Below are positions 30,224 through 60,000 of a stretch of 64,000 bases of DNA, piece by piece; position 1 is the first letter of the stretch; every line of letters starts with the position of its first letter. The position numbers and the translations under genes were made by a program. The DNA is taken from the NCBI GenBank assembly GCA_964506245.1, contig CAZDKK010000014.1, positions 21,792 to 85,791 on the forward strand, written 5' to 3'. The DNA is from an uncultured bacterium (GTDB lineage: Bacteria > Eisenbacteria > RBG-16-71-46 > CAIMUX01 > WJJG01). Under the pieces are notes generated by a model. The model saw nothing but the letters and a program-made list of their open reading frames with translations, had not been told where the DNA came from and did not search any database.

Positions 30224-30237
30224 AACGATCTCCTATG

Positions 30238-34874: not shown

Positions 34875-34895
34875 GGGGCTACCTCGGATCCTCCA

Positions 34896-36375: not shown

Positions 36376-40062
<3,687 letters not shown>

Positions 40063-42415: not shown

Positions 42416-42741
42416 CTGCTTCTCCCTTCTCTTCTCGGTCCTGCCGCCCACTACTCGATCGATCTGGAGAAGTCCGGTCAATCGACTGACAAGGCCGCTG
42501 GGCCTGGGTCGATTACACACGTCAAGTATGCGACTGGCCCAGGCAAATGGGCAAGTGGGAAGGCGAGCCTGGAGTTCCCGGCGCGAGTCGCGCTCCGTTC
42601 CCCTCGGTCGTCCGGGCGGCAGCCTTCCGGGTCATGCGGGGCCCCGCGCCGCTGTTGTCACGCCCGGCGCGGGGACCTATGCTGGCGGTCGTCATGCGCG
42701 ATCCCGTTCACATCCCAGGCGTGGCCCGCAGGCGATCGGCG

Positions 42742-44192: not shown

Positions 44193-45359
44193 ATGTCACC
44201 CATGTCCATTTCCCATCTCGCTTTCTCGTCTCTCGCTCGCGGTCCGCGGCGGTGGGGCGCCGGCGGTCTGCGGCCGATGACGACTCTCCTGATTCTCCTG
44301 GCGATCGCGCTCCCGGTCGGGACACCGGCGCCGCTGGCCCAAGAGGGCGAGGGGGAGGGCGCGGGCTGCGACCTGCTCGTCCAGCGCGCGCTCGAGTCCC
44401 TGATCAGCGACCGTTACCGCGAGGCCTTGACCTACGTCGAGCAGGCCTTTGGCGTCGCCCAGGCCGAGCCGGCCTGTCAGGCCCGCTGCCTCCAGACGCG
44501 CTCCTGCACATACCTGCGCATGGGTGAGCGGGAACAGGCGATCCAGTCGCTGTCGCAGCTCTTCGACATCAACCCCAACCCGCCCTACGACGGCCGCATG
44601 TTCCCGCCCGCGATGAACCGCCTCTTCCGCGCGGTGCGCGACTCGTTCATGCAAGCGGGCACGATGGACATCGGCACCGTCGCCGTGCTGGACTTCAAGG
44701 TCCTCAACCCCGGCAAGTATCGCTACCAGGACTACGACTACGACGCGCTCGGACAAGCGCTGCAGATGATCATCAGCACGGACATCATCGAGTCGACGAA
44801 TCTGTCGGTGGTGGACCGCACCAACATGAAGGACGTGCTGGCGGAGCTGCAGCTCAGCTCGAACGCCGATCTGACCAACCAGCAGAACCGCACCCGTCTG
44901 GGGCAGCTCCTGAACGCGCACGCCTTCGTCACCGGGCAGATCGCGTTGTTCAGCAAGGACCAGATCCGGATCGACATCCAGGTCATCCATGCGGCCACGA
45001 GCCGTGTTCTGGCCCGCCACTACGAGGGGCCATTCAGCGGCGACCCGCACAACCTGCTCGAGCTGCAGCGCGGGGTCCTCGCCGCGGTGACGGAGGCTTT
45101 GAACGAATTCCGCACCGAGGTGAAGTCGACCGACTTGCTGGCGCCCGATCCGATCTACTACGACAAGCTCGAGAAGTCGCGCCGTGCCGGCAAGCAGTAC
45201 ATGGAAACCTGGCTGCTGCAGGGGCAGGCGCTGGCCCTCGAGGACAAGCACGATCTGAAAGGCGCAATGAAGATCTGGGAGAAGGTGGCCAAGCTGGATC
45301 CCGACAACGAGGTCGCCCGCGCGCGCGTCTGGGCCATCAAATCCGAGATCGGGGGGTGA
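44193..45359 (+). CDS. Periplasmic protein with CsgG/LpoB/TolB-N-like domain (paralog 1 of 3)
   Basis: GGGAGG RBS 6 nt before ATG 44193; hydrophobic export segment LLILLAIALPVGTPAPLAQ. Core TVAVLDFKVLNPG...DALGQALQMIISTDIIESTNLSVVDRTNMKDVLAELQLSSNADL. Confidence 0.55.
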   Translation: MSPMSISHLAFSSLARGPRRWGAGGLRPMTTLLILLAIALPVGTPAPLAQEGEGEGAGCDLLVQRALESLISDRYREALTYVEQAFGVAQAEPACQARCLQTRSCTYLRMGEREQAIQSLSQLFDINPNPPYDGRMFPPAMNRLFRAVRDSFMQAGTMDIGTVAVLDFKVLNPGKYRYQDYDYDALGQALQMIISTDIIESTNLSVVDRTNMKDVLAELQLSSNADLTNQQNRTRLGQLLNAHAFVTGQIALFSKDQIRIDIQVIHAATSRVLARHYEGPFSGDPHNLLELQRGVLAAVTEALNEFRTEVKSTDLLAPDPIYYDKLEKSRRAGKQYMETWLLQGQALALEDKHDLKGAMKIWEKVAKLDPDNEVARARVWAIKSEIGG

Positions 45360-45372
45360 GGAGGTCGCGCGG

Positions 45373-46536
45373 GTGATGTTCCTCCATCGGCCGCGGTGCT
45401 GGGTGGGTGCGGTCCGCCCGGTTTCCCTCGCAGGGGTGCTCTGGGTTGCGTGCCTGGGGATCGCTTCGCCGCGCGCGGATGAACGGGGCGCGCCGCCGCC
45501 CGCGGACCTGTTCGACCTGGTGGCCGGTCACCGGCTCGATCAGCTTCTGGCCCTGGCCGGCGCGGAGCTGGATTCGGCGGAGATCCCGATCGCGCGCAAG
45601 CTCGACCTCCTGCGCGCGCTCGCCAGCGCGCACCTCGCCGAGGCCGAGGCGCGAGGTGATGCCGCCCACCGCGAGAGCGCCCGATCGGCGATGATCGCCA
45701 TGCTCAAGCTGGATCCACAGGCCGACTTCGTCCCCGGGTACCGTTTCCCGCCCCAGGTGCACGCACTCTTCCGCAAGGTCCGCGACGAATCGCGCGCGGG
45801 AGAGGAAATCGTGGCCGATCCGCGCCGCGTGGCGGTCGCTCCTTTCTACCTCGTCGACCTGGGCGCGAGCGGGCGGTTCGATTGGCGCGAGTACTGCGAA
45901 GCACTCACCTTCATGATCACGACCGATCTCGATCAGGTCCCCGGCCTGACCATCTTGTCACGCGAGCACATGGAGTCGATCCGGGGCGAGCTGGCGCTCT
46001 CGTCGCAGGCCGACTTGGTCTCGGCCGAGAATCGGATCCGCTTGCAGCGACTCCTGTCCGCCTCCTCGTTCGTCTACGGCGAGGTTCAGGCGCTGCCGGG
46101 TGACGAGATCTATCTTGAAGTGCGCTGGGTGCAGACCGAGTCAGGCGCGGTGCTCGCCGCGTATCACGATCGGGCGCGCATTCGCAAGGGGGCGGATCTC
46201 CTCGAACTCGAACACGGCGTGATCCTGGACGGGCTCCTCCCCGCCATGCTGGAGGGGCTCGGCCTCACGCGGGCGGGTGCGGGCGTCAGCGAGGTGCTGC
46301 AGCGCAAGCTGGCACAGGCAGCCAAGGGCGATACCTACTTGCACTACATCGCGGCCGTCGCCCGTGCGACCACGGCCGAGCAGTCGGGCGACATGGCCGA
46401 GGCCCTGCGGCAGTGGGGAGCTGCCAGCCGCGATTTGCCCGCAGACGCCGCCCCAGCCGAGCGCATTCGCGCGCTCAAGATGTTCTACGAGGGGGCGGAC
46501 AGCGACAGCTTGCTCAACCGTTCATCAGGAGGATGA
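45373..46536 (+). CDS. Periplasmic protein with CsgG/LpoB/TolB-N-like domain (paralog 2 of 3)
   Basis: Signal peptide. Core VAVAPFYLVDLGASGRF...CEALTFMITTDLDQVPGLTILSREHMESIRGELALSSQADL is collinear with paralog 1. Separated from its neighbours by 14 and 5 bp. Confidence 0.55.
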   Translation: MMFLHRPRCWVGAVRPVSLAGVLWVACLGIASPRADERGAPPPADLFDLVAGHRLDQLLALAGAELDSAEIPIARKLDLLRALASAHLAEAEARGDAAHRESARSAMIAMLKLDPQADFVPGYRFPPQVHALFRKVRDESRAGEEIVADPRRVAVAPFYLVDLGASGRFDWREYCEALTFMITTDLDQVPGLTILSREHMESIRGELALSSQADLVSAENRIRLQRLLSASSFVYGEVQALPGDEIYLEVRWVQTESGAVLAAYHDRARIRKGADLLELEHGVILDGLLPAMLEGLGLTRAGAGVSEVLQRKLAQAAKGDTYLHYIAAVARATTAEQSGDMAEALRQWGAASRDLPADAAPAERIRALKMFYEGADSDSLLNRSSGG

Positions 46537-46540
46537 TCGG

Positions 46541-47852
46541 CGTGAAAGCTCGTCTCATGGCGCGGCTCTGGCTGATATGGCTGATGCCGCTGGCAACGCT
46601 GGCGGGGTGCGCCGGGCGGGGTGCGTCGTTCGATCCCGCGGGGGGAAGCCGCGCGGCCTGGGTGGCTGAGTTGCCCGCGCTCGAGCAGGAAGCGGCCACC
46701 CGGCCGGACGACCCCGGTGCGCTCGGCCGCCTGGCGCTGGCCTACTTCATGGCCGATCGCTTCGAGGAGGCGGCCGCGACCGCGGCGCGCGCTCGCGAGG
46801 TCAACCCCCGCGACGGAACGGCGTGCTACGTCGAAGCGCTGCTCTTCGAGCGCGCGGGCGACTGGCGCCGGGCGGACGAGATCTACGCGGCGCGTGAGAC
46901 CCTGGCGCCGATCAGCGTCGAGCTCGAGCGGCTGATGCGCGCCCGCCACGAGATCGCCGCCCGCGAGATCATCCGGGCCGGGATCAAGGCCGACCTCGCC
47001 GCCGCCCACGGCCGCGCGCCCGAGGTCGAGCCCAACGCGCTCGTCGTGCGCCGGTTTCTGCCCGTCAGCGCCGCGCGCCGCGATTCGGTGCTCGCGGTGG
47101 GCATCACGCACTTCTTCACCCAGGCCTTCGCCGAGATCGACACCCTCACCGTGATCGACGAAACGCGGCGCCGGCTGCTCGAGGACGAGATCGCCCTCAG
47201 CTCGAGCGATGCGCTCGATCCGGGAGCGCGGCTCGTCGCGCGCACGATCGGCGCCGGCCTCGCGCTGGCGGGTCGTTCGGGCACCGACTTCCCCGACAGC
47301 GATCGCGTCGCCATCGTCTACCAGCTCGATGACCTCGCGCTGGAGCCGAAGAGCGAGTCTTGGCGCGGCACGCGTGAAATGGTGCGGATCGAGGCGCCCA
47401 CCCGCTACATCTTGACCGACGTGGGTCGCGAGGTCGTGCGCATCGCCCAGGAGCAGCTCCACCTGAGCCTGGCCCCGGCGGTGGCGGCACGGCTCGCCCA
47501 GCCGCCCACCAAGGCCTTCGCCGCCTTCATGGCCTACTCGGAGGGTCTGCTGGACGAGGGCCGCCGGGAGTACGGCAAGGCATTCGAGCGCTATCGCGAG
47601 GCGGCGCGCATCGACCCGGGCTTCGCGTGGGCTGGCGCGGCGGCCGAGCGCGTCGCGGGCGCGGGCGAACGCGGCGAGGCGCTGCCGCCGGCCGAGACGC
47701 CGCCTTCCGGGGAGGCCGGCGACCTCGAGCAGCAGGCCACGGAGATCGCCGGCCAGCAGGTTGACGATGTGCCCACGGGACACAACGAGCAGCCGAGCCC
47801 GCTGCCTCCGCTCGAGACCGAACGCGTGCGCATCGTCGTCCGGCCGCGGTAG
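46541..47852 (+). CDS. Lipoprotein with TPR-like N-region and CsgG/LpoB/TolB-N-like domain (paralog 3 of 3)
   Basis: GTG 46541 is 9 nt after AGGAGG (the ATG at 46533 abuts the RBS); lipobox LATLAGC. Core ALVVRRFLPVSAARRDSVLAVGITHFFTQAFAEIDTLTVIDETRRRLLEDEIALSSSDAL. Confidence 0.5.
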
Positions 47853-47864
47853 AAGGAGGGAGGC

Positions 47865-49061
47865 ATGCCGAGAGTCGCCGTCGCCGCGTTGATCGGCGTG
47901 ATCGTGGGCTGCGTCGCCATCCCGTTGATCGGCACGGTCGTGGGCAGCGCCGGGACAGCGGCTGCTGCGGAGGGAACAGCGGGCGCGGGCGTCGAGCTGC
48001 GATCGTGGACGGTCGACCTTCCCGGCGCCGACGCAACCTTCGAGCAGACGCTCGTCTCCACGCGCATCGAGGTTCCCCATTTGTGGGGCCCGCTCGCGCT
48101 GCGCGGCTACCTGCCCCTCGCCACGAGCCGCGACGACGAGCTCGACACCGAGATCAGCGGCGCGGGCGATGCCCAGGTGCGCCTGATGTGGCCTGCGTCC
48201 GGCACGGCCTGGACCCTCAGCCTCGGCGCCGATTTCCCGACCGGCCGGACCGGACTCACCACGACCGAGGCCCTGGTCGCCACCCGCATGCTCGGCAGCC
48301 GCGTGCTGGACTTCGGCCTCAAGCGCCCCGGCGAAGGCTTCGACCTGATGCTGGGGGCGTCCCGTGCAATCCGCGCCGGTCGCACCACGGTCGCCGGCGT
48401 CGCCTTGGCCGGTCACCTCAAGGGCGACTACGCGCTCTACGAGGAGGACGGCGTCGAGCACACGGCCTCGCCGGGCAATCGCATCCACGTCGCCCTCTCG
48501 TTGCTCGCCCGCGAGCATCCCGAGGATCCTGACTGGGACCTCGACCTGACGCTGGGCGGACAATGGGCCGGCGACTACACGCTCGAAGAACGCGGCGGAG
48601 AGATCACGGTCGCGGAGGGGGCGCTGGGGACGCTGGATGCCTCGTACAGACACCGCGTGGGCGAGGAAGGGCGACTCTCGCTCTCCGCGCACCTCCTCGC
48701 GCGCGACCACGACGAGCTCACCGGCGGCAGGGCGATCGAGACGGAGTTGCTCGGGCTCTCGACGCGCTGGGTGACGGCGCTGGGGTTGGGCTACGGGCGC
48801 CCCCTCGGCACCTGGGCCGATATCTCGGCCGGCGTGAGCTACGCCCTTTACTGCAACGACCCGGCAGGCGACCTCAACAGCGACGTGACCGCGCTCGATC
48901 TGGGGCTGCACCGCGCGCTCGGCGAAAACCTGCAGTTGAACGCCTCCGCCGAGTACGCCTTCGGAAACACGATGTGGAGCGAACTGGGCGGAGACGGTGC
49001 GGCGGACCGGCGCCCGCTGACAGGAACGACTCTGGGGATCGGCCTGGAGCTTGTCTTCTAG
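47865..49061 (+). CDS. Outer-membrane beta-barrel protein
   Basis: AAGGAGGGAGG RBS; signal peptide. Alternating hydrophobic beta-strand pattern; C-terminal ...LGIGLELVF with terminal Phe typical of OMPs. Confidence 0.55.
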   Translation: MPRVAVAALIGVIVGCVAIPLIGTVVGSAGTAAAAEGTAGAGVELRSWTVDLPGADATFEQTLVSTRIEVPHLWGPLALRGYLPLATSRDDELDTEISGAGDAQVRLMWPASGTAWTLSLGADFPTGRTGLTTTEALVATRMLGSRVLDFGLKRPGEGFDLMLGASRAIRAGRTTVAGVALAGHLKGDYALYEEDGVEHTASPGNRIHVALSLLAREHPEDPDWDLDLTLGGQWAGDYTLEERGGEITVAEGALGTLDASYRHRVGEEGRLSLSAHLLARDHDELTGGRAIETELLGLSTRWVTALGLGYGRPLGTWADISAGVSYALYCNDPAGDLNSDVTALDLGLHRALGENLQLNASAEYAFGNTMWSELGGDGAADRRPLTGTTLGIGLELVF

Positions 49062-49091
49062 GACGACCGCCCCGCCAGCAAGGTGAGACGC

Positions 49092-52000
49092 ATGATTGCG
49101 CACTTCACGCTCGCTCGTCGCGCGGGCCCGCGGGTTCTGTGGGCGGCGCGAATCGCGTTCTGCGTACTGGTCCTGGTTGGCCCCACCAGCTGCGATCGGG
49201 ACACGGCCACGGTTCCCCAGCACGTCCCCAATGGCGGCTTCGGCGTCGGCCTCTGGCTTCCGCCGGATGGCGCCTGGGATGGACAAGTGCAGGCCGCGCT
49301 GCAGGACTCCTCCCAAGTGTGGCTCTACCTGCTGGGCGCCGATCCCCCGTCCCGGTTCAGCGAGCGCCCGCACCCTGACAATCCAGCGCGGCCGCCCTAC
49401 GCCCGCGCGTCGGCGGGCTTGTCCGGCGACATCGTGCTCGAGATCGATCCGCTCGACCAAGCGACTTGGTGGCGCGTCTTCGTGCGTCGCGGCGGGCTGC
49501 TCGGCCAGACCACGTTCACCCTCGCGCCGGAGGATCGCGAGCACATCGCCAATCTGATGCTCGCGCCCGAGACGGCCGTGGAAGACGGCCTCGTGGTCTA
49601 CGCCGGCCTGCCGGTCGCCCAGGGCGGGTCGCCGCCCGACGCGAGCGGATCCCTCGACGCGGGGGTGACGCTGCTCTTCCCGGTGGCCGTCGAGAACCCC
49701 ACGGCGATCGACGGCCTGTCCTTCGCCTACGCCCTCGACCTCTCCGTCGAGAGCACCGTGTACGTCGATCCCGGCAGCAGGCTGTGTGCGGGCGGGGACA
49801 GCCTCGCCTATGTGTTCTTCGTGACGCCCCTCGATGCGCAAGGCGGATGCCGGCGATTCTCCCTCAGCCTGCGTCGCGCCGAGGGCCCAGGACTCGTTGC
49901 GCCTGTCGCCGCCGGCGCCGACGTTCTCTTCTACATCGCGGCCGCGGGCGACACCGCCGGCGCGAGCTTGTGTCTCGACCGCACCTCCGTGCGCTTCAAG
50001 GTGGGCGCCGAGGAAGACACGGTACCGGCCCATCGTGTCGTGGGACCGGCCGAGTGCGAGTATCCGGTCTGCGAGGCGGCCATCTCGAGCCCGATGTCGG
50101 GCGAAGTGCTGTGCGCCGGCGCGGCTGCGACCATCACCTGGACCACGAACGCCTGCTGCGGATCGACCGTGGGAATCGCCCTCCTCCACGACCGCGTGGT
50201 CTGCCGCACGATCGCGGCGACCACCGCCAATGACGGCGAGCACGTCTGGACCGTCACCGGCTGCGGGGAGGCGCAATCCGACTACCAGATCGCGCTCCTC
50301 GATGCGAGCCAGGCGATCATCGCGGCAACGACGGGCGGCTTCAGCATCGAGCCGGGCTGCCGCATCGCCGTGACCGCCCCAGCCGGCGGTGAGCGCTATA
50401 CCGAGGGCGAGAGCCGGATCCTGCAGTGGCAGCCGGGCGGGTGTTGCGGGGACGAAGTGCGACTCGAGCTGCTCAGCGAAGGCGAACCCTGCCTGACGAT
50501 CGCCGCTACCACCGAGAACGACGGCATGTTCTCCTGGACGGTGGCGCCCTGCAGTGAGATGTACAGCGCCTATCGGCTGCGCGTGACCGATCTCGAGACG
50601 CAGGCGATCGGAGAAAGCGGCCAGAACTTCTCCATCTTTCCAGCCTGCGCGCCAATCGTCGACTACCCCAACGGCGGCGAGACATTCTGCGTCGGACAAC
50701 CCGAGACGCTGACCTGGATGGGCTTCGGATGTCAGGGTCCCATGCGGGTCGAGCTGCTGCGGGACGGCGAGTCGTGCCTCACCATCGCAGAGGATGCGCC
50801 CAACACCGGGAGCTACGAGTGGACCCCGGTGCCCTGCGAGCAGGGCGCCGGGGAATACTCGCTGCGGATCGCAGACCAACAGACCGGCGCCGCCGACACG
50901 AGCGCCGCGCCCTTCACGATCGCGCCGGCTTGCTCGCTTGGTGTCACAAGCCCGACCGCAGGCCAGGGTTTCTGCCCGGGGGATCCGGTCACGATCACCT
51001 GGACCGTCGCGACCTGCTGCGGGCCGTCTGTGGGTATCGAGCTGCTGCACAACGGTGTGAGCTGCCTGACGATTGTAGACAGCACGCCGAACAACGGGTC
51101 CTACGCCTGGATCGCTGAGCCATGCGAAGGCACAACCGGCGCGGCCCCGGCGTACAGCATCCGGGTCACCGACCCCGAGACGGAGGCGACAGGCACGAGC
51201 CCGGGGTTGTTCACGATCGGCACCTGCGAGCCGGCGATCACTGGTCCCGCCCCGGGCGCGGAGTTGTGCTTGGGCAGCACCGTGGAGGTGACCTGGACGG
51301 CCGCCGAGTGCTGCGGCGAGCTGGTGCGCGTGGAACTGCTGTGCGACGGCCTTGCTTGCGGGGTGATCGCCGATTCGACCGCCAACGACGGGTCGCTCCT
51401 GTGGACCGTGGGCGAACCCGGCTCTGCGGGTGTCAACTTCGGACTGCGGGTGACCGACCTGGAGAGCGGCAACTCCGGCACGGTCGCGCCCTTCGGGATC
51501 GCTCCGAGCTGCGCCATCGTGGTGACCGGCCCCACCGTGCAAGACGAGGTCTGCGAGGGCGCCCCGATCGAGGTGACCTGGACTGCGTCGAGCTGCTGTG
51601 CATCCCAGGTGAGCATCGAGCTCCTGCTCCTGGGGGATCCCTGCCTGACGATCGCTGCATCCACCGAGAACAACGGCCTCTACCTCTGGACGCCCGAGCG
51701 CTGCGACGGGGCGACCGAGGGCTACACGATCCGCGTCGCCGAGATCGGCGGGCAGATCGCCGGCGAGACCCCCGCGGCCTTCACCATCGGCCCGCCGTGC
51801 GCGATCGCGATCACCAGCCCCACCCCCCAGGCCACGCTGTGCGAGGGCGACCAGCTCGACATCACCTGGTCGGCCAGTGCCTGCTGCGGCGACCTCACGC
51901 GGATCGAGCTCCTGCTCAACGGCACGGTCTGCGAAACGATCGCGACCGTGCTCCAGGGCAGCTCCTATGCGTGGACCGTCGCCGCCTGCGGATCGCCCAC

Positions 52001-53231
52001 CGACAACCACGGCGTGCGCGTCACCAACGTCTCCACCGGGCAATCGGACGAGGTCACGGGCCTGACGATCCACCCGGCCTGCGCCCTGGATCTGACCTAT
52101 CCGGACGGCGGTGAGACGCTGTGCGCCGGAGAGACGGTCGAGATCCTGTGGACTTATGGCGCCTGCTGCGGCCGCACCGTTGCGATCGATTTGCTGCGCG
52201 ACGGCATTTCCTGCCGCAGCATCGCGACAGCGGCGGCCAACACAGGCCACTACGCGTGGACCGTCGGCGGCTGCGGGACCGCAACCCAGGGGTACCAGGT
52301 CCGCGTCCGGGACCTCTCCACCATGACGGAGGCGACGAGCGCCGTGACCTTCTCGGTCGAGGCCGAGTGCGCCATCACCATCACCAGCCCGGGCTACGGC
52401 GACGAATATTGCGCCGGCGATTTGGTCGACATCGAGTGGCTGGCCTCGTCCTGCTGCCCCGACACCTTCACGGTCGAACAGCTTTGCGACGGCGCGGTCT
52501 GCGCAACGATCGCCGTCGGGGTCACCGGCTCGTCGTACGCCTGGGAAGCGAGCATCCCCCCGGGCAGCCTGGGCAGCTACACGATCCGCGTCCGCGGCGG
52601 GGACTACGCCGGTGAAAGCGACGTCTTCACCGTCAGCGACGAATGCATCGTGTACATCAACTATCCCAACGGGGAGGAGGAGCTGTGCGAGGGTGATCCG
52701 ATCACGATCACGTGGGGTCACGAGCTGTGCTGCGGATCGTCCGTCGGAATCGCGCTCCTGCGCGAGGGGGTGGTAGTGGATGTCATCGCCTCGTCGACCG
52801 CCAACGACGGCTCGCACCCCTGGACACCGGAGCGGTTCAACTCGAGCTCGGTGGGCTACCAGATCCAGATCACGGACTTGCAGACCGGCGTCGTGGATCT
52901 GTCGGATGCCATGTTCCGCATCAACCCCGAGTGCTACATCGACGCCAACGCGCCGAACGGTGGTATGTACTATCCTGAAGAGCCGGTCACCATCGCGTGG
53001 GACTACAGCCCCTGTTGCGAGGGTCCGGTTCGCATCGAGCTGCTTCTCGAGAGCGAACCCTGCGCACCGCCCCTCGTGATCGCGGCGTCGACGCCAAACG
53101 ACGGCCTCTATACTTGGCCCGCCGTGCCATGCGGGAGCGAGCCGTTCCCCTACACGGTGCTCATCACGCACCTTGGCACCGGGGTCTCTAGCACGACGCG
53201 GGAACCCTTCTGGATCACGCTGGAGGACTGA
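49092..53231 (+). CDS. Giant cell-surface protein with 11 tandem Kre9/KNH-like (Ig-fold) Cys-containing repeats
   Basis: N-terminal signal/anchor. Eleven repeats of ~95 aa share [IV]TW.......CCG..V.[IV]ELL.DG..C.TIA.ST.NDG.Y.WT...C....Y.[IL]RVTD. No T9SS CTD at the end. The GTG at 49083 is the track start; the ATG at 49092 is preferred. Confidence 0.7.
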   Translation: MIAHFTLARRAGPRVLWAARIAFCVLVLVGPTSCDRDTATVPQHVPNGGFGVGLWLPPDGAWDGQVQAALQDSSQVWLYLLGADPPSRFSERPHPDNPARPPYARASAGLSGDIVLEIDPLDQATWWRVFVRRGGLLGQTTFTLAPEDREHIANLMLAPETAVEDGLVVYAGLPVAQGGSPPDASGSLDAGVTLLFPVAVENPTAIDGLSFAYALDLSVESTVYVDPGSRLCAGGDSLAYVFFVTPLDAQGGCRRFSLSLRRAEGPGLVAPVAAGADVLFYIAAAGDTAGASLCLDRTSVRFKVGAEEDTVPAHRVVGPAECEYPVCEAAISSPMSGEVLCAGAAATITWTTNACCGSTVGIALLHDRVVCRTIAATTANDGEHVWTVTGCGEAQSDYQIALLDASQAIIAATTGGFSIEPGCRIAVTAPAGGERYTEGESRILQWQPGGCCGDEVRLELLSEGEPCLTIAATTENDGMFSWTVAPCSEMYSAYRLRVTDLETQAIGESGQNFSIFPACAPIVDYPNGGETFCVGQPETLTWMGFGCQGPMRVELLRDGESCLTIAEDAPNTGSYEWTPVPCEQGAGEYSLRIADQQTGAADTSAAPFTIAPACSLGVTSPTAGQGFCPGDPVTITWTVATCCGPSVGIELLHNGVSCLTIVDSTPNNGSYAWIAEPCEGTTGAAPAYSIRVTDPETEATGTSPGLFTIGTCEPAITGPAPGAELCLGSTVEVTWTAAECCGELVRVELLCDGLACGVIADSTANDGSLLWTVGEPGSAGVNFGLRVTDLESGNSGTVAPFGIAPSCAIVVTGPTVQDEVCEGAPIEVTWTASSCCASQVSIELLLLGDPCLTIAASTENNGLYLWTPERCDGATEGYTIRVAEIGGQIAGETPAAFTIGPPCAIAITSPTPQATLCEGDQLDITWSASACCGDLTRIELLLNGTVCETIATVLQGSSYAWTVAACGSPTDNHGVRVTNVSTGQSDEVTGLTIHPACALDLTYPDGGETLCAGETVEILWTYGACCGRTVAIDLLRDGISCRSIATAAANTGHYAWTVGGCGTATQGYQVRVRDLSTMTEATSAVTFSVEAECAITITSPGYGDEYCAGDLVDIEWLASSCCPDTFTVEQLCDGAVCATIAVGVTGSSYAWEASIPPGSLGSYTIRVRGGDYAGESDVFTVSDECIVYINYPNGEEELCEGDPITITWGHELCCGSSVGIALLREGVVVDVIASSTANDGSHPWTPERFNSSSVGYQIQITDLQTGVVDLSDAMFRINPECYIDANAPNGGMYYPEEPVTIAWDYSPCCEGPVRIELLLESEPCAPPLVIAASTPNDGLYTWPAVPCGSEPFPYTVLITHLGTGVSSTTREPFWITLED

Positions 53232-53260
53232 AGGCGGGACCTCCTGGCCCGTGCAACGGC

Positions 53261-53794
53261 TCACCCCTCCGCCGGCACCTGCCGCGTCTCCTTCACCTCC
53301 AGGAAGAACCGCTCTCCCGCCTGGAGACCGCCGGCGCCCCCCTTGATGAAAGGTCCGATCAGTATCAGCGTGAGCACGATCGATGTGAACGTGCGCGACT
53401 TGCCCTTGAACGCCTGGCGGCCTTTGATCGCCACCGGGACCTGATCCCCGCCCACCTCGATCCAACCGTCCGTGAAGACGACCTGGCCGGCTTTGCCGAA
53501 CATCCCGTTCCCTTTGGCCTCTGCGACCACGAGCACGCCCTCGGTCCCAGCCGGGACCGCCACCTGCTCGTGCACCACCACGTCACTGACGACGCGGAAA
53601 TGCACCTGGCCCTCGGCCTCGACGCGGCCACCGGTGGCATCGTCGATCATCTCGGCCTCGATCTCGCAACCCTCGCGCAGCGTGACCATCGTCTGGGCGG
53701 CAGCGGTGAGCAGCGGCAGCGGGAGCTGTCCGATGATCAGCGCGCCCATGAGGACCATCACCAACCCTCTGCGCAGGTTCTTCGCGCGAAGCAT
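53261..53794 (-). CDS. Hypothetical small membrane-associated protein
   Basis: Internal ATG 53794 with AAGGAGG RBS; N-terminal signal/TM, beta-rich middle, C-terminal hydrophobic segment SIVLTLILIGPF; last gene of the minus-strand operon. Confidence 0.4.
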   Translation of the reverse strand: MLRAKNLRRGLVMVLMGALIIGQLPLPLLTAAAQTMVTLREGCEIEAEMIDDATGGRVEAEGQVHFRVVSDVVVHEQVAVPAGTEGVLVVAEAKGNGMFGKAGQVVFTDGWIEVGGDQVPVAIKGRQAFKGKSRTFTSIVLTLILIGPFIKGGAGGLQAGERFFLEVKETRQVPAEG

Positions 53795-53808
53795 GGGAGA
53801 CCTCCTCC

Positions 53809-54618
53809 TTACTGCTCGATTCGATACACCACATCCGCGATTCGCTGCGGCTCTCCCCCACCCGCCTCGTAGAGGCACCAGAGGTCGTAGCGCCGCACGG
53901 GTCGGTAGGCCAACGTCGCGATCGAGATCTCGGAGCGCCGCTCGACCGGCAGCTCGCTCAGGGCGCCGCGCATGAGGCGCCGCACCGCCTTCGTCACCCG
54001 CGATGCGAGGATGCGAACCGCGGCCCCCTCGCCGAGGGCCGCCGACACTTCGGCCACTTGCTGTTGCGCCGCGGGCGACAGAGGCTCCGAGGAATTCGAG
54101 CCTTGGCCTGCGGTTGCGGCCGCCCCCGCGCTCGTGGCGGGCTGCAGCATCTTCGCGTCGATCGTCAGCGCCGCGCACTGGTCGCCTTCGAACCAGCGAT
54201 CCCGGAAGAAGCCGGCATCCTCGTAGGCGAAGGGGTCGGCACCCCCCTCCAGGTAATCATTGTGGGGGATCGTCAGGAGCTGGTGGAACCAGGCCATACG
54301 CCCACCCGCGTCTACGCCCTGTCGCAGGACTTTGCCCACCAGGTGCGTCGTGCCGGCGCCGTCATCGCTCCGGGGGATCGCGCCGGCACCATCTTCGCCC
54401 CGCGGGGTCACACTGCCCCCCACACCCGCATCCCCGCTCGGCACGGCCACGTGATACAAGGCGCCGCCGAAGTCCGGCGTCAGGATCTCGCCCCACGACT
54501 TGCACGCCTCCACGGCCTGCTGGGCGAGCTTGGGCGTAATGCCCTCGGAGCGCGAGACCAGCGTGAATCCCTGTGTGAAGGTGAACGTGCCGTAGACGAG
54601 CTGTTCGACGCGGATCAT
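53809..54618 (-). CDS. Hypothetical protein (unknown function, co-operonic with the GTPase)
   Basis: ~270 aa, GGGGA RBS, no TM helices, Gly/Ala-rich low-complexity stretches, no domain recognised. Confidence 0.45.
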   Translation of the reverse strand: MIRVEQLVYGTFTFTQGFTLVSRSEGITPKLAQQAVEACKSWGEILTPDFGGALYHVAVPSGDAGVGGSVTPRGEDGAGAIPRSDDGAGTTHLVGKVLRQGVDAGGRMAWFHQLLTIPHNDYLEGGADPFAYEDAGFFRDRWFEGDQCAALTIDAKMLQPATSAGAAATAGQGSNSSEPLSPAAQQQVAEVSAALGEGAAVRILASRVTKAVRRLMRGALSELPVERRSEISIATLAYRPVRRYDLWCLYEAGGGEPQRIADVVYRIEQ

Positions 54619-54691
54619 CACGTCCCCTTCGCCAGAGGCCTACACCGGGCGCATCCCCTGCGCCCATCGACTGCGCGTCGACGCCGCTGCA

Positions 54692-57049
54692 TCAGAGGTT
54701 CGGCAGCGCCGTCGTCAAATCGGGGAAAGCGACCGTCACCCCCAGGTTCCCGCGGAAGACATGCCGGCCGCCATCCTCCTGGATCTGGAAGAGCGCCCAG
54801 CGGCCGCTCACCTCCCACTCGTCGACGATCTTGTTGCCGGTGCTCTTCGGGTCGGTCTTCTCGATGCCGATCTTGACCGCGTCGCCCGGCTTCCAGCGCA
54901 GGCGTCCGGGCAGCCCGGGCTCGATGTCAGTCGGGTCCCAGGCGTTGGTCTCGGTGTTCCACACGCGCAGATGATAGCCCCGCGGGCACTCGCTGGCTTC
55001 GACCTTGACCAGCATGCCGCTCTTCTCGACCGCTTCGATCTTGCCGAGGAAGCGCTGGACGCGCTGCGCGTCGGGCGTGCCGGCGAAATCGCGCGTAAAG
55101 TTGCGCAGGCGCCCTTTGAACGCCTCGCTGAAACGGTAGTCCAGGCCGCTGCCCTCCATGTCCTGGATGATGCTGTCCAGCTCCTCGCCCGCGCCGGCCG
55201 ACGCCACTTCCTGGCCCAGGCCGCTCAGGCTGGACGCAATGCGCCCACCGATCGCCTGGCCGTTGACCGGACCGATGCTGCGGAGCTGCGCCGCGATGCC
55301 CGCCAGCTCGTCGGGATTGTCCTGGGCCCCGATCGCCCGCTCGAGCAGCCCGCCGATCTCGCGCACGTTGACGTAGGTCGTGCGCCACGGCCCGGTGTCC
55401 TGCAGGTCATCGGCATAGGCCTCGACGTACGCCTTGCACAGGTCGTTGATCCGCTGCAAAGCCGACCACGAGCGCCCGCCCAGACCCGCGACGCCGCGGA
55501 TGATCTGGTCGAGGTCCTGGCTGCGCACGTCCCCCATCACGCCGGTCTGCCGCTGCCGCCAGCGGCTCTGCCACTCGCTCACGTTCTCGGGCCGGAAGAG
55601 CTGCTTGATCGCCGCATCGACGTCTGCCGGGGCCGCGCGCGAGCCGGCGAGCATCGGCTGCAGGCGCCGCTCGACGAAGGCGCGGTCCCACTCGCCCTCG
55701 CGCCGCGCGAGCGTCTCGTCGCACGAGCGGTACTCCTGCGACGCGGAGGGGAACTGGTCGCGCATCTCGCGCATCGCCCGGCGGGCTTCGGAGAACTCCT
55801 CATAGGCAAGACCCGGCACCGCGTCGCGCATCTTGGCCGAGAGCGCGCGGGCCTGTTCGTACTGGAGGATGAGGCCGGCCGTCTCGCGGAATTCGGGCTT
55901 GAAGAAACCAGCCAGCAGGCTGTTGCGATAGCCCTCGAGCGCGTCGACCTTCTCCGCGGCCGTGCCGCCGCCCACGCCGCCCAGGCCGGCGAGCTTGCGG
56001 ATCTTCTGGATGCGCCCCTCGTGCCAGGCGTTGACCAGCGAGAAGAGGATGATGAACACTGCCGCCGCCCCGGCGATCCACCACTTGATCCGCTGCGCGA
56101 TGAGCGCCTTGCGCTTCTCCATGAGGAGGTGCACCGACCAGACGAAGGGCCGCTCCAGTCCGACCGGCCGCAGGTCCTTCGGCGGCCGCGTCTCGCCCGC
56201 CGGCGTGCGCTCGAGCCCGCCGGTCGAGGAGATGAAGAAGATCTGCAGGTCGGGTGACTTGGTCAGGCAGTAGTCCACGAGGGGTTTCAGCAGCGAGAGC
56301 GCGCGGTCGACCTGGTCGCGCCAGGGCAGATGGCGCGCGACGTGCGGCTGCTGCAGGACGGCCGAGACGAAGCTGTCGTAGCCGCGATAGCGCGAGTAGC
56401 GGATGGTGTCGCCGACCAGGACCACCTGGTCCTCGCCCTGGAAGCCGTCGAGCAGGTCGGCCTTGGTGATGACGACCGCCACCGGGATCTTCAGGCGATT
56501 GCGCGCGCCCTCGACGAGCTGCGCGAGCATCAGCTCGAACGAGTCGATCTTCTTGCGCCGGCGCACGCTGGCCTCGCGCCCCTCGACGATCAGGTCCTCG
56601 GCGTCGACCAGCACGAAGACGGCGTCGCAGCTCTCGAAGTATTCGAGGAACCCCTTGCCCGTCTCGACCTCGCGATCGATCGAGATGCTCTCACCCTGGT
56701 AGTCCTGCGACTCGAACGGGTAGCGGATGGTCGTGTCGATCACCGCCGTGAAGCGGTAGAGGCGCTCGGTCGCGGTGGGCGGCGGCCACTGCCCGGCGGC
56801 GAGCAGGTCGAAGTAGCTGCTCATGTCCTGGCGCGTCTGGAAGTCGTCGGTCTCGAGGGAGAAGTCGCGCCGGCCGTGTGTCTTGTGCCACAGCATCGTC
56901 AGGAAGACGGTCTTGCCCGCCCGCGTATGACCGAAGATGCCGATCTTGCGTTCTTTCGGGCGGCGTCCTCCACGCTTGGCCTGCGCCTTGGCCGCCTGTC
57001 CTTGCACCTTCTTGGCCTGCGTCGCGCCTTTCTTGAGCAACTTGAACAT
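54692..57049 (-). CDS. Membrane-anchored P-loop GTPase with large periplasmic C-terminal region (TssM/IcmF-like topology, hypothesis)
   Basis: G1 GIFGHTRAGKT, G3 DYQGE, G4-like VVITKADL. A single TM (IKWWIAGAAAVFIILFSLV) lies at ~aa 300, then ~460 aa of predicted periplasmic region. The ATG is 3 nt after the upstream gene's TGA. Confidence 0.6.
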   Translation of the reverse strand: MFKLLKKGATQAKKVQGQAAKAQAKRGGRRPKERKIGIFGHTRAGKTVFLTMLWHKTHGRRDFSLETDDFQTRQDMSSYFDLLAAGQWPPPTATERLYRFTAVIDTTIRYPFESQDYQGESISIDREVETGKGFLEYFESCDAVFVLVDAEDLIVEGREASVRRRKKIDSFELMLAQLVEGARNRLKIPVAVVITKADLLDGFQGEDQVVLVGDTIRYSRYRGYDSFVSAVLQQPHVARHLPWRDQVDRALSLLKPLVDYCLTKSPDLQIFFISSTGGLERTPAGETRPPKDLRPVGLERPFVWSVHLLMEKRKALIAQRIKWWIAGAAAVFIILFSLVNAWHEGRIQKIRKLAGLGGVGGGTAAEKVDALEGYRNSLLAGFFKPEFRETAGLILQYEQARALSAKMRDAVPGLAYEEFSEARRAMREMRDQFPSASQEYRSCDETLARREGEWDRAFVERRLQPMLAGSRAAPADVDAAIKQLFRPENVSEWQSRWRQRQTGVMGDVRSQDLDQIIRGVAGLGGRSWSALQRINDLCKAYVEAYADDLQDTGPWRTTYVNVREIGGLLERAIGAQDNPDELAGIAAQLRSIGPVNGQAIGGRIASSLSGLGQEVASAGAGEELDSIIQDMEGSGLDYRFSEAFKGRLRNFTRDFAGTPDAQRVQRFLGKIEAVEKSGMLVKVEASECPRGYHLRVWNTETNAWDPTDIEPGLPGRLRWKPGDAVKIGIEKTDPKSTGNKIVDEWEVSGRWALFQIQEDGGRHVFRGNLGVTVAFPDLTTALPNL

Positions 57050-57052
57050 GGC

Positions 57053-57964
57053 TCACTCCACCCGGCCGGCTTCTTGGTAGTAGCGCTCGAGGATCTGCAC
57101 CTGCTGTCCCTGGCGCCAGCCCCAGAAGGCCAAGGTCAAGAGGACGAGGACCACGGCGATGGCCATGTAGGCGAGCTGCATCCGGTAGACCATCTTCCAG
57201 CGGCTCAGGCGCCCGAAGGTCGCGCGCCCGCGCCCCAGCGAGGCGAACCACTTGCGCACGCGCGCCCAGAAGCCCTCGCGCGCGATGTAGCCGTGGCGCT
57301 CGAGGAAGTAGCCCAACGAGCGCCGGACCGGCGCGACCTCCTGGAAGAAGCCGGCCTCGGCCAGACGCTGTTCGAGCGTGTGCGCCTTCAGCGCGAGGTT
57401 GGGGACGTCGCTGTGGCGCACGCGCCGGCGCCCAAGCTCGAGCAGCAGCGTATCGGTCCGCGCCTCGCGGACGCTGTCGATCGTCTGATCGTCGCGCCAG
57501 TGGCCGCCGGGGTCCTTGTCCTCGAGGAAGCGGGAGACCTCGTGCACCAGGTAGTAGCGCAACCGGTCGGCATCCTGGAGCGCGGCCTCGTCGAAAATGA
57601 GCGGCACAAGCTCGTCGTAGATGAACGGCCCGTCGATGGACGAGGTCGTGCGCTTCTCCTGCGACAGCTCGTAGCCCTTGCGGTGGCCGCGACCCTCGTT
57701 GGCGTAGTTCTCGAAGAGCGTCGCCAGGAAGTGCGCGATGATGACGCGCAGGCCGGGTTTGTCGAAGTCGATCGGCTGGATCAGCTCGTAGAGCTTCTGA
57801 TCCATCTCGGTGAGGCGCGCGTCGTTGCCGCGCAGGTTCTTGAAGTCGTCCAGCACGCCGATCAGGTTGCGCTCGAGGCTGTCCTGGTTGAGCGCCCCGG
57901 GATCGCGGTCGAACGCCTCGGCCTGGCGGAAGACTTCCTCCAGTTGCTCGATGCCGACGCCCAT
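57053..57964 (-). CDS. C-terminally TM-anchored cytoplasmic protein (TssL/DotU-like topology, hypothesis)
   Basis: AAGGAG RBS 9 nt upstream of the ATG; ~260-aa helical cytoplasmic part; single TM MAIAVVLVLLTLAFWGW near the C-terminus. Confidence 0.5.
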   Translation of the reverse strand: MGVGIEQLEEVFRQAEAFDRDPGALNQDSLERNLIGVLDDFKNLRGNDARLTEMDQKLYELIQPIDFDKPGLRVIIAHFLATLFENYANEGRGHRKGYELSQEKRTTSSIDGPFIYDELVPLIFDEAALQDADRLRYYLVHEVSRFLEDKDPGGHWRDDQTIDSVREARTDTLLLELGRRRVRHSDVPNLALKAHTLEQRLAEAGFFQEVAPVRRSLGYFLERHGYIAREGFWARVRKWFASLGRGRATFGRLSRWKMVYRMQLAYMAIAVVLVLLTLAFWGWRQGQQVQILERYYQEAGRVE

Positions 57965-57999
57965 CCCGCACAGCTCCTTTCAGACTCCCGGGTCGGTGA

Positions 58000-59457
58000 C
58001 TACAGGTAGTACACCCGGATGTCCGTGTCCTTCTTCTGGAGCAGCTCCTTGAGATCGACGACGCCCGAGGAGCGCAGCGTCAGGTAATTCGCATTTTCAC
58101 GCTTGTTGCGCTCGACCTCCATGAGGAGGTAGATGCGCCCCGGCCGCTCCTTGAAGTCGGGCTGCAGCTCCGGGCAGTAGAGCGGGCGATCGTCGTTGAC
58201 GCCGCCCTTCAGGCGGATGTCGCGCTCGTCCACGCCCGGGGCGACATTGTTGCGCAGCACGAAGAGGACGCTGCGCAATGCCCTCGTCTCCAGATCGCGG
58301 AAGTAGAGCACCTGGCTCTCCTCCGTGAAGCTGCTCTCGATCTTGTTCACCTCGAGCAGGTAGTAGTCCTGCTGGCGGTAGGTCACCTTGGGCTTGGGCG
58401 CTTCGGCCACCTCGCCGCCCGCGGAGGTGAGCTTCTCGCCGATGAACCGCAAGCAGTCGCGCGTGTAGTCGAGGAGCTGCGCCCCCTCGCGCATCTGGCG
58501 TCCCATGGCCTCGTGCACGTAGGGCGAGGCGACGTAGCGCGCAACTTTGTTGTGAAATTCGATGCCCCCCGCGGGCCCCGGCAGGCCCCCGGTCTGCAGG
58601 AAGTGCTCGTCGAGCTCGGATTTCACGGGTGAGGCCCCCGCGAGCGCGTTGGCGAAGACGCGCAGCAGCGAGCGCAGCGATCCCACGAAGAGCGGCGGGG
58701 GCGCTTCCTCCCAGCCCCCGAGATGCTCGATCGCGATGGACCAACCGGTGAGGATCGCATCCAGCGTGCCGCGCGCGGCCAGGTTCCACGGGTGCATGTC
58801 GGCGGCCGGCGGGGTCGCGCGCAAGACCTCGACGACCTCGTCGAGCGCCACCTGCCCCACGCGGCGGATCTCGTCGGTCGTGCGGCGCAGCGTCTGGGTG
58901 GCGCCGATCGTGAAGGCCGGCGGCAGGTACTCGGCGCTTTCCTCGGCCTTGTAGTTGGCCACGGCGATCTCGGCGATCTTCAGGCAGGAGCCGTCGCCGG
59001 GCGCCTGGGACTCGACCAGCAGCACCTCGTAGCTCGCGGTCCGGCGCGGCGCGTTCCCCGAGGCATCCGGCGCACCCAGCGGCTGCTTCTCCGCGCGCAC
59101 CCGCAAGAAGACGGGAATCGTCTGGGACGGCTGGGGGTTCAGCTCGAGCGTGCCGATCACCGGGTAACGCTCCTGGGCCTCGCTGTCGGCATCGATGTGG
59201 ATGAGCGTTCCGTCGCGCGTGACCGCGCGGCAGTGGAGCACCTCGACCCGCAGCCGGTTCTCGCTCTCGATCGAGGCGCGGACCTGCAGGGGCGGGGCAT
59301 CGCCCGGCGATGCGGCGAGCAGCCCGTGCAGGGGCAGCCCGTTGCGGACCAGCCAGCGCAGCGCCTCCTCGTGGTAGCGTTCCTGCGCCTCGAAGTGGGC
59401 CCGGGAGACGAGCATCCCGTCCCACCAGTTCACGGACGTCAGATCCAGTCGCCGCAA
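58000..59457 (-). CDS. TssK-like (T6SS baseplate family) protein, hypothesis
   Basis: Proposed TTG start at 59457 is 7 nt after AAGGAGGG; the upstream part of the track ORF is Arg-rich junk. N-terminus LTSVNWWDGMLVSRAHFEAQERY resembles the TssK N-terminal motif (V.WsEGmFL.PQHFQQ.D.Y); ~486 aa, which is TssK-sized. Confidence 0.5.
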   Translation of the reverse strand: MRRLDLTSVNWWDGMLVSRAHFEAQERYHEEALRWLVRNGLPLHGLLAASPGDAPPLQVRASIESENRLRVEVLHCRAVTRDGTLIHIDADSEAQERYPVIGTLELNPQPSQTIPVFLRVRAEKQPLGAPDASGNAPRRTASYEVLLVESQAPGDGSCLKIAEIAVANYKAEESAEYLPPAFTIGATQTLRRTTDEIRRVGQVALDEVVEVLRATPPAADMHPWNLAARGTLDAILTGWSIAIEHLGGWEEAPPPLFVGSLRSLLRVFANALAGASPVKSELDEHFLQTGGLPGPAGGIEFHNKVARYVASPYVHEAMGRQMREGAQLLDYTRDCLRFIGEKLTSAGGEVAEAPKPKVTYRQQDYYLLEVNKIESSFTEESQVLYFRDLETRALRSVLFVLRNNVAPGVDERDIRLKGGVNDDRPLYCPELQPDFKERPGRIYLLMEVERNKRENANYLTLRSSGVVDLKELLQKKDTDIRVYYL

Positions 59458-59808
59458 ACCGCCAGCCCTCCTTGCGCGCGGGCAAGGCCCGTGCGGGTCG
59501 AACGATAGGGTGCCGAGGGCGCCGGGGCCGCCACGCTCAATGCCGGGAGTTTGGCACAGGGCCGGGGGGGTGTCCAGGGTGGGGATGGTGGGGGCATGGT
59601 CCCGTCCCACCCCGGCGATCCGGTGCGAGGGAACCTGGCTCCGCCGGGCGGTTTGGATGAGATCAACGGCGACCCCGGGGACGGACCTGCGGCAGCGAGC
59701 AGGCACGGGCGTGCGGCGGTGGGCGAAAGGGGCTCGTTGTCCGAGTGCGCGAGCGGCTCTCCTGTGCCCTGAAGCCCGCAGTCTGAGACCAAAGGGAGGA
59801 TACTCATC

Positions 59809-60000
59809 ATGAAGACCAACGTCGGCGGCATCGACCGCATCATTCGTTTCGTGGTGGGCGTGGCCGTCATCGGCATCGGCATCGCGACCAGCAGTTGGTG
59901 GGGCTTGATCGGGGTCGTGCCGTTGGCCACTGCGGCGATCGGCTGGTGCCCCGCCTATCTGCCGTTCGGGATCTCGAGCTGCCGCGTGAAGAGCAGGTAG
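59809..60000 (+). CDS. DUF2892 (YgaP-like) small membrane protein
   Basis: [11 protein letters not shown] 8 nt upstream. 63 aa; GIDRIIRFVVGVAVIGIGI...LATAAIGWCPAYLPFGISSC matches the DUF2892 pattern (RiiR..lG.... ..G.CP.Y...G). Confidence 0.65.
   Translation: MKTNVGGIDRIIRFVVGVAVIGIGIATSSWWGLIGVVPLATAAIGWCPAYLPFGISSCRVKSR

Follow-up and report, generated by a model that had tools for sequence, protein, structure and literature searches.

Do two operons that converge on each other encode unrelated activities, or do they supply the inner and outer parts of one machine that spans the cell envelope? The question is raised by a locus in a 64,000-nucleotide stretch of DNA (hereafter, the window) from an uncultured bacterium of the Eisenbacteria lineage (contig CAZDKK010000014.1). 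An earlier note on this DNA had reported two convergent five-gene operons, here called A (plus strand, A1-A5) and B (minus strand, B1-B5), and had proposed that they form a free-standing, undescribed trans-envelope apparatus, one candidate role of which was to secrete or anchor a giant protein. The reading that we favour, with somewhat better than even confidence, is that both operons, together with a further gene, up1, constitute the envelope-spanning anchoring module of a divergent type VI secretion system (T6SS) of Eisenbacteria-like bacteria, in which they replace TssJ-TssL-TssM.

Reading frames were called from a plot of G+C content at third codon positions (GC3) and from open reading frame (ORF) calls. 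The window is ~67% G+C, and as a result the frames separate cleanly in the GC3 plot. The convergent arrangement described in the earlier note, with stops at 53231 (+) and 53261 (-), is borne out (Table 1). The stop codon of A5 is TGA at 53229-53231, that of B5 is TCA (TGA on the minus strand) at 53261-53263, and a scan of the 29 bp between them found no consensus intrinsic terminator. Inside either operon, genes are spaced by -4 to 70 bp, and the stop codon of A2 is overlapped by the ATG of A3 (ATGA). Six of the calls (A1, A4, B1, B2, B3, and B5) match genes on the NCBI record exactly. The sixth plus-strand gene that travels with the system, up1, had been missed earlier; each of the eleven genes is intact, and their lengths are normal. 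A5, formerly described as very large or giant, is 1382 amino acids (aa) long, which is large but not giant. Two other ORFs were considered as genes and ruled out. The ORF at 53261-54178, read as a single 305-aa gene, is B5 plus B4 in two frames, and the ORF at 59439-59930 (-), read as a sixth B gene, lies where the coding signal is that of a small plus-strand gene at 59810-60000.

Table 1. Features of the window, with the eleven genes of the A and B operons and up1 first and the genes discussed at the end of the text below them. TM, transmembrane.
Feature	Position	Strand	Description
up1	42547-43977	+	Lipoprotein, LGGC lipobox, no Pfam match
A1	44193-45359	+	Exported; TPR, CsgG/LpoB-like alpha/beta domain, TPR
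A2	45373-46536	+	A1 paralogue
A3	46533-47852	+	TPR lipoprotein (LAGC), architecture like A1
A4	47865-49061	+	Predicted outer-membrane beta-barrel
A5	49083-53231	+	Lipoprotein, 1382 aa, N-terminal domain and Ig-like repeats
Convergent intergenic spacer, 29 bp	53232-53260		Read directly
B5	53261-53794	-	Small exported beta-rich protein, 177 aa
B4	53809-54621	-	Cytoplasmic GAP1-N2-like protein, 270 aa
B3	54692-57049	-	DO-GTPase2-family GTPase, one TM helix, periplasmic domain
B2	57053-57964	-	Tail-anchored inner-membrane protein, 303 aa
B1	58000-59457	-	TssK-like baseplate protein, 485 aa
HEPN_Swt1+DUF499	22958-26338	-	Defence run
DUF1156 N6-adenine methyltransferase	31965-34895	-	Defence run
AAA_14/DUF4143	34896-36215	-	Defence run
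SNF2/ResIII helicase with NOV_C domain	36376-40089	-	Defence run
SMODS nucleotidyltransferase	29081-30232		Low-G+C stretch
Prokaryotic JAB protein	26736-27359		Low-G+C stretch
Peptidase_C25 gingipain-like protein	1-1767	+	FlgD_ig-type end
LVIVD-repeat propeller	40253-42631	-	FlgD_ig-type end
Reg_prop propeller	60088-62496	+	FlgD_ig-type end

Which parts of a T6SS does the B operon encode? B1 matches the NCBIfam TssK model TIGR03353 over residues 9-199 (E 8.7e-13), with 48 bits, below the equivalog cut-off of 100, and the Pfam model T6SS_VasE (PF05936) with 23.4 bits, at the cut-off. The N-terminal shoulder domain of B1 is recognisable and the C-terminal half is unmatched. B1 has neither a TM helix nor a signal peptide, and an hhalign comparison with the genuine TssK of locus L062 (see below) was not significant. 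The description of the operon as TssKLM-like therefore stands for its TssK-like member, but all tests of TssL and TssM homology failed.

B2 has no signal peptide; its helical cytoplasmic domain of 255 aa is followed by a TM helix (residues 258-285 of 303) and a tail of ~18 aa. Since the TM helix lies 18 residues from the C-terminus, B2 is predicted to be a tail-anchored inner-membrane protein. The single C-terminal TM helix and the position of the gene directly after the TssK-like B1 are both TssL-like; the gaps in the order B1-B2-B3 are 35 and 3 bp. The B2 family is very rare: 1.84 billion proteins yielded just 17 representative clusters. In 18 members of the family Pfam recognises no domain, DotU included, and the search of the Protein Data Bank (PDB) with the family profile gave no DotU match. 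Foldseek gave none either, a result that is meaningless because the structure model of B2 is poor (pLDDT 58). In a comparison by hhalign with the genuine DotU protein of L062 the probability was 0.3%. As far as sequence comparison can tell, B2 is a new family.

B3 scores above the cut-off of the Pfam DO-GTPase2 model (PF19993; E 6.7e-10, 39.4 bits, cut-off 27). Its GTPase motifs (the P-loop GHTRAGKT, DYxGE, and TKADLL) are invariant or nearly so, and its GTPase core is 24-33% identical to planctomycete DO-GTPases. The N-terminus is a lysine-rich helix with no cysteines. Hydropathy places one TM helix at residues 320-343, and the extracytoplasmic domain of ~440 aa is all-alpha at ~363-676 and ends in a beta-sandwich at 678-775; the AlphaFold2 model has a pLDDT of 80-90 across the C-terminal 400 residues. 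Full-length relatives of B3 are rare (12 clusters among 5.8 billion proteins). One of them belongs to a metagenome-assembled genome of Candidatus Eisenbacteria, and the associated TssC proteins are also Eisenbacteria-named.

Searches of B3 for the IcmF-related and IcmF_C periplasmic domains and for a TssM-like fold found none of them. The Pfam model IcmF-related_N matches B3 with an E-value of 6e-4 and 19.6 bits, below the cut-off of 25, and hhalign aligns B3 with the genuine IcmF of L062 over 21 columns around TKxDLxxGF (E 0.003, probability 10%); the stretch PVxxxxTKxDLxxGF is common to B3 and the genuine IcmF N-domain. The identification of B2 as TssL and of B3 as TssM by homology is not supported. 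Their likeness to TssL and TssM is one of topology, domain order, and gene position only, and is best described as apparent analogy. Of the two inner-membrane anchors proposed in the earlier note, the general form holds, B2 being tail-anchored and B3 a P-loop NTPase that sits in the membrane and extends a long arm into the periplasm, but B3 belongs to the DO-GTPase2 family.

The last two proteins of the operon are B4 and B5. B4 matches the Pfam models GAP1-N2 (E 5e-4, 20.5 bits) and GAP1-M (E 2e-4, 21.9 bits) below the cut-off of 24, and both models are matched by 7 of 14 members of its family; GAP1-C was not detected in B4. A profile of the B4 family matches the gene directly after planctomycete DO-GTPases, with E-values down to 4e-18. 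B1 and B4 have no export signal, and B5, like up1 and all A proteins, has one. The signal of B5 is conserved (ending in AAAQ, before a T) and is followed by the motif VTLREGREIEAEMIDDA; a second hydrophobic segment lies at residues 136-157. B5 is always the terminal gene of the B operon in the mapped loci, and scans of Pfam and NCBIfam gave it no family. None of the ten proteins A1-A5 and B1-B5 has a match in PADLOC. Five families are new, in that Pfam, NCBIfam, and PADLOC have no match for them: up1, B2, B5, the C-terminal domain of B3, and the N-domain of A5.

The genomic context of the B operon was examined by mapping the components with family profiles on fetched loci of relatives (L001-L063). 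B1-B5 form an invariant block in the mapped loci. In seven relatives this block directly adjoins T6SS genes, with ClpV in every one. ClpV is found on the B1 side of the block in L001, L002, L003/4, L010, L011, and L061, and TssC, Hcp, and VgrG are also present in L003/4, L010, L011, and L061, as far as the fetched DNA reaches. In L003/4, L010, and L011, the genes divergent from B1 are ClpV, a 148-aa gene of TssB size, TssC (PF17541), two Hcp (PF17642), and VgrG. In L001, L002, and L061, an Ig-repeat protein of ~1600 aa sits between B1 and ClpV; this protein (L001:2559-7334, L002:2166-7187, and L061:1841-6649; 1591-1673 aa) has ASH/HYDIN-type Ig domains and is absent from the window. The most extended cluster is a composite of L017 and L061, which overlap by 2080 bp at 100% identity. 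It begins with A2-A5, the convergent B5-B1, the Ig-repeat protein, and ClpV, and continues with TssB, TssC, Hcp, Hcp, VgrG, a 115-aa gene, a 600-aa gene, TssG, and a convergent up1 homologue. This is the one relative cluster in which TssG is seen, at its far end.

It is this context that removes the idea of a free-standing apparatus, since the clusters of relatives are contiguous with ClpV, the TssB-size gene, TssC, two Hcp, VgrG, and TssG. The family matches of these T6SS clusters include no DotU, IcmF, or SciN, the families of TssJLM, and neither B2-B5 nor A1-A5 show the arrangement of TM helices and domains of TssNQOPR from Bacteroidota, judged by the architectures in PMC10781749. The clusters thus lack either characterised membrane complex, and the places of tssL and tssM are held by a tail-anchored protein and a membrane NTPase. 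We consider it likely that the B operon is the inner part of a T6SS membrane complex. For the window's organism, the assignment to a T6SS would rest on orthology of the cluster, because sheath, Hcp, VgrG, and ClpV are encoded with the cluster in the relatives only.

A second lineage may have wired a B3-type GTPase to T6SS. In L005 (5440-19937), L006, and L007, a 688-aa B3-like GTPase from an organism of 51% G+C matches B3 through the TM helix with 29% identity. The genes before it encode two TolB-like PD40 propellers and an OMP/PEGA protein, and those after it are PAAR, DcrB, Peptidase_M14, and ClpB/ClpV-like genes.

Could B3 and B4 instead regulate a machine of which they are not a structural part? 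The DO-GTPase2/GAP1-N2 pair is the constant core of conflict systems predicted by Kaur, Burroughs, Iyer & Aravind in 2020 (PMC7159879), and it is possible in principle that B3-B4, perhaps with B5, form a switch of this kind that responds to an invader or an insult to the envelope and only regulates the T6SS or another effector, with the anchor elsewhere or not needed. The GTPase above its family threshold, the GAP1-N2/GAP1-M-like gene downstream of it (B4, near threshold), and the wide occurrence of the same pair in Planctomycetota without T6SS genes speak for such a switch. B3 and A5 also match features of the published systems, which include GTPases with TM helices and an extracytoplasmic beta-sandwich and a fast-evolving protein of beta-sandwich repeats nearby (PMC7159879). 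The likeness is incomplete, however. B3 lacks N-terminal zinc ribbons and is the product of a single GTPase gene, the neighbouring repeats are of Kre9_KNH/Big_7, ASH, or CARDB Ig-like type and not FNIII, the published themes are tubulin, HSP70, and kinase and not TssK or T6SS, and the host lies outside the listed phyla (PMC7159879). Moreover, the composite cluster from A2 through TssG to up1 contains no other candidate membrane anchor, B1 and B2 share a tight operon with B3 (gaps of 3-35 bp), and the T6SSs examined to date depend on a membrane complex (PMC10781749). Regulatory and structural roles are also compatible, TssM itself being an NTPase. A switch in place of an anchor is therefore judged unlikely, and the B operon as inner membrane complex is retained.

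The A operon and up1 would supply the other end of the structure. CsgG- and LpoB-type domains tend to build rings or scaffolds beneath the outer membrane. A1 matches the Pfam CsgG model above its cut-off (E 7e-9, 35.7 bits, cut-off 20.8), with residues 159-253 aligned to positions 8-101 of the 210 model positions, and weakly matches LpoB. TPRs flank this domain on both sides (TPR_2, E 3e-9), and the profile of the A1 family reaches CsgG in the PDB with an E-value of ~0.4; among the PDB profile searches with the B1, B2, B3, and A1/A2 families, only the TPR matches and this marginal CsgG match were useful. A2 is 26-28% identical to A1 (BLASTP, E 4e-28) and is conserved in L001, L002, L010, L017, and L063. 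A3 matches TPR_19 (E 1.4e-5) and keeps its lipobox in six homologues, and one protein of L004 matches the profiles of A1 and A3 alike. A scaffold of lipoproteins, as proposed in the earlier note, is supported by the CsgG-like and TPR domains of A1 but has to be amended: conserved lipoboxes are found in A3, A5, and up1 only, and A1 and A2 have ordinary SPI-type signal peptides. Compared with the curli channel, A1 shares its central domain with the first half of the CsgG model and differs in the unmatched second half, the TPR flanks, and the lack of a lipobox in A1 and A2; CsgE, CsgF, and CsgA are also missing here.

The outer-membrane barrel of the earlier proposal is upheld by A4, which has a signal peptide and ends in ...LELVF; most homologues share the aromatic last residue, as in outer-membrane barrels. 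A4 gives a weak match to Phenol_MetA_deg, and only 6 homologue clusters were found. A5 has about 11 cysteine-rich Ig-like repeats (Kre9_KNH, E 2e-59; Big_7, E 7.5e-36), with ten CC motifs spaced ~95 residues apart. The conserved part is the N-terminal domain (residues ~24-310), and the repeats are optional in the family. In L001, L002, and L017, the homologues are ~320 aa long and align only to A5 residues ~15-317. Because the Ig repeats are missing in these three relatives, secretion or anchoring of a giant protein, as the earlier note had it, is unlikely to be the purpose of the system. Some large and variable Ig-repeat protein accompanies the cluster in every examined locus, whether it is A5, the ASH/HYDIN protein, or a CARDB/Ig lipoprotein. 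up1 has no Pfam match. Its homologues lie upstream of A1 in L063, as in the window, just after TssG at the far T6SS end in L061 (L061:17957-19189, E 1e-106), and after A4 in L062. The differing position of up1 shows that the cluster has been rearranged.

Are the two operons linked beyond the window? Both are found on one contig in ten distinct contigs (the window, L001, L002, L003/4, L008, L010, L011, L013, L017+L061, and L063), and in nine of the ten they are convergent, at distances from 29 bp to 7.4 kb. The B3 proteins of the relatives are from 54% to at least 90% identical to that of the window. Nothing lies between B5 and the A operon in the window, in L001 (64 bp), in L013 (~79 bp), or in L010 (128 bp). 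In L003/4, the distance is 67 bp, and an 863-aa CARDB/Ig lipoprotein takes the place of A5. Inserted genes separate the operons in L002 (2.7 kb), L017 (3.4 kb), L008 (5.4 kb), and L011 (7.4 kb). In L063, the A operon has no B genes within ~6 kb, the operons being >5.8 kb apart; co-residence there is taken from B2 and B3 of at least 90% identity recorded on a contig of equal size (119,571 bp), not from one stretch. The outer flanks differ by locus and consist of T6SS genes, OmpA genes, or a beta-propeller gene, and the inserted genes differ as well. It follows that the linkage has outlived repeated rearrangement. The co-occurrence that the earlier note had called for is thus found within the clade that carries the genes, in which the operons are not mostly separate.

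Conserved linkage can also arise between neighbours that are not parts of one machine. In such a case, the B operon would belong to the T6SS, and the A operon and up1 would form an independent outer-membrane module that exports or anchors A5, as a surface lipoprotein or adhesin, by means of the CsgG-like/TPR proteins and a barrel; the two would stay together because surface adhesion aids contact-dependent killing by T6SS, or because of shared regulation. Convergent operons are separate transcripts, unrelated genes have been inserted in the five loci with wide spacing, and A5 is a cysteine-rich Ig-repeat lipoprotein of cell-surface type, all of which suits two neighbours. So do the rates of evolution. 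In comparisons of the window with L063, dN/dS is 0.19 for A1, 0.27 for up1, 0.33 for A2, 0.38 for A4, 0.42 for A3, and 0.51 for A5; since dS is high, these values are approximate. Between the window and L008 the B genes have values of 0.10-0.18 (0.10 for B2, which is 94% identical to the L008 copy). The rate of evolution of the A genes is thus two to five times that of the B genes. A5 is the fastest, and its highest dN/dS fits greater surface exposure. Against mere neighbourhood, three lineages keep A1-A4 and the 310-aa N-domain of A5 without Ig repeats, so that export of an adhesin is not the conserved function, the half-length CsgG match of A1 does not indicate a secretion channel, and all A modules found to date share their contig with T6SS-type genes.

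One such contig is L062 (L062:1-12720, 73.5% G+C), in which homologues of A3, A4, and up1 lie beside a canonical TssJ (SciN), TssK, DotU, and IcmF. Between the A-type module and TssJKLM there are unassigned genes of 732, 285, 260, and 177 aa, the smallest of which encodes zinc ribbons. Here the A module is linked to T6SS a second time. The order in L062 is the canonical tssK-tssL-tssM, the same order that the types of B1-B2-B3 copy. This T6SS has its own complete TssJKLM, which means that an A-type module is not tied to the GTPase-type anchor, and L062 is for this reason also a point for independent neighbours. Taken together, we regard the independent-neighbour account as doubtful though well within consideration, and we consider the chances that the A operon is physically part of the same structure as the B operon to be evenly balanced.

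Returning to the anchoring module as a whole, several further points weigh against it. B2 has no DotU signal in profile-sequence comparison, nor in the Pfam, PDB profile, and Foldseek searches. The planctomycete GTPase-GAP1 pair occurs without TssK, B2, B5, or A genes. The convergent operons are not co-transcribed, and unrelated genes are inserted between them in four lineages. The clade is narrow, so inheritance, and not selection, could account for some of the synteny. The pairing in L062 suggests that the A module is an accessory of the envelope end and no substitute for TssJ or TssM. Finally, no sheath, tube, spike, or ClpV genes are present in the 64-kb window, and a search for TssC found no cluster on the window's contig (90,005 bp) or on those of its two nearest relatives (714,531 and 119,571 bp). 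Possession of a T6SS by the window's subclade is therefore unproven.

The T6SS core genes of this subclade appear to have moved away or been lost. With the core lost or relocated, has its envelope module then become a stand-alone, sheath-independent apparatus, or is it a decaying remnant? A relative of 90% identity likewise has no T6SS core beside the cluster on its 714-kb contig, and the transfer of up1 from the TssG end (as in L061) to the A1 end is a sign of rearrangement. A remnant is contradicted by the intact, normal-length state of all eleven genes and by the strong purifying selection on the B genes, measured between two genomes neither of which has an adjacent T6SS core. In addition, T6SS loci are often split, and multi-locus systems have been noted (PMC10781749). 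Both forms of this alternative are very improbable. A related reading for the window's subclade, in which the two operons would make a sheath-free, GTPase-driven, TssK-docked trans-envelope machine, is a distinctly unlikely speculation. The role of such a machine might be to display the A5 surface lipoprotein, to remodel it, or to sense the envelope. If it existed, the conflict systems of Planctomycetota with a DO-GTPase/GAP1 pair would be switches of a like kind that span the envelope.

If the two operons and up1 do form a T6SS anchor, how would it be built? Gene content, export signals, topology, conserved linkage, the T6SS genes beside the cluster in relatives, and purifying selection are observed; the contacts between the proteins (including those between the operons), the location of each part, and the role of GTP are inferred. 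B1 would dock the baseplate via its conserved N-terminal shoulder, and its divergent C-terminal half would bind the cytoplasmic faces of B2, in the place of TssL, and of B3. B3 would cross the inner membrane once, with its ~440-aa helical arm and terminal beta-sandwich reaching into the periplasm. The B3 GTPase and the GAP1-like B4 may act as a nucleotide switch that licenses assembly or firing, or reports the state of the envelope, comparable to the NTPase of TssM. The end of the structure in the periplasm and outer membrane would be built from B5, A1-A3, the A5 N-domain, up1, and the barrel A4. In lineages that have them, the Ig repeats of A5 would lie on the cell surface and evolve fast.

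Two kinds of T6SS membrane complex provide a comparison. In the TssJ-TssL-TssM complex with TssK of Pseudomonadota (T6SS-i), a TssK-like gene, a tail-anchored protein, a membrane P-loop NTPase with a helical arm and a beta domain, and outer-membrane lipoproteins recur, and the clusters of relatives adjoin ClpV, sheath, Hcp, and VgrG genes. The differences are that a DotU domain is missing from B2, that B3 crosses the membrane with a single TM helix where TssM has three, that TssJ (SciN) is missing, and that B3 belongs to the DO-GTPase2 family, lacks IcmF-related and IcmF_C domains, and finds no TssM in fold searches; the GAP1-like protein, the CsgG-like/TPR proteins, and the barrel are extra. 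The TssN-Q-O-P-R complex (T6SS-iii), reported from Bacteroidota only, is a precedent for a non-homologous, lineage-specific membrane complex of five proteins that retains TssK (PMC10781749), and the sheath and tube proteins of the relatives match the Pfam models TssC (PF17541) and TssD (PF17642). In T6SS-iii, TssN has five TM helices and a ubiquitin-like domain, TssQ, TssO, and TssP have an N-terminal TM helix, and TssR is a vWA lipoprotein (PMC10781749). Compared by description, these architectures are absent here, and T6SS-iii has no GTPase.

The literature searched on T6SS in Eisenbacteria or related phyla, and on T6SS with a GTPase or CsgG, does not describe this gene set. The characterised T6SS anchors are two, TssJLM and the TssNQOPR of Bacteroidota. 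The anchor proposed here would be a third, non-homologous to both and from another phylum. In that case the interface that is conserved would be the baseplate with TssK, and the envelope-spanning part would have been reinvented repeatedly. It would also give the DO-GTPase/GAP1-N2 pair, so far a purely computational prediction, its first concrete cellular context, and would make a GTP switch that gates assembly or firing of an injection machine a testable idea. Tools that detect T6SS by the presence of TssJLM or TssN-R would score such systems as incomplete.

Besides the cluster, the window carries a two-component system, genes for peptidases and propeller proteins, and a defence island. The island, a series of defence-type genes at 22958-40089 (-), looks restriction- or BREX-like. 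Within it, the stretch at 26000-32000 has a G+C of 0.60-0.64 compared with ~0.68 elsewhere in the window and encodes a SMODS nucleotidyltransferase and a prokaryotic JAB protein. These features suggest that the island contains a CBASS-like cassette gained by horizontal transfer.

The small ORF at 59810-60000 (+) has a strong GGAGG ribosome-binding site and encodes a hydrophobic protein of 63 aa (MKTNVGGIDRIIRFVVGVAVIG...), which presumably resembles DUF2892/YgaP-like membrane proteins. It accounts for the coding signal of the 600-bp 'intergenic' stretch that lies upstream of B1.

Three large secreted proteins of the window, the gingipain-like peptidase and the two propellers of Table 1, have a FlgD_ig-type C-terminal domain in common, and a Por_Secre_tail match is found at 3373-3921, a hint that the window's organism uses a common C-terminal sorting signal.

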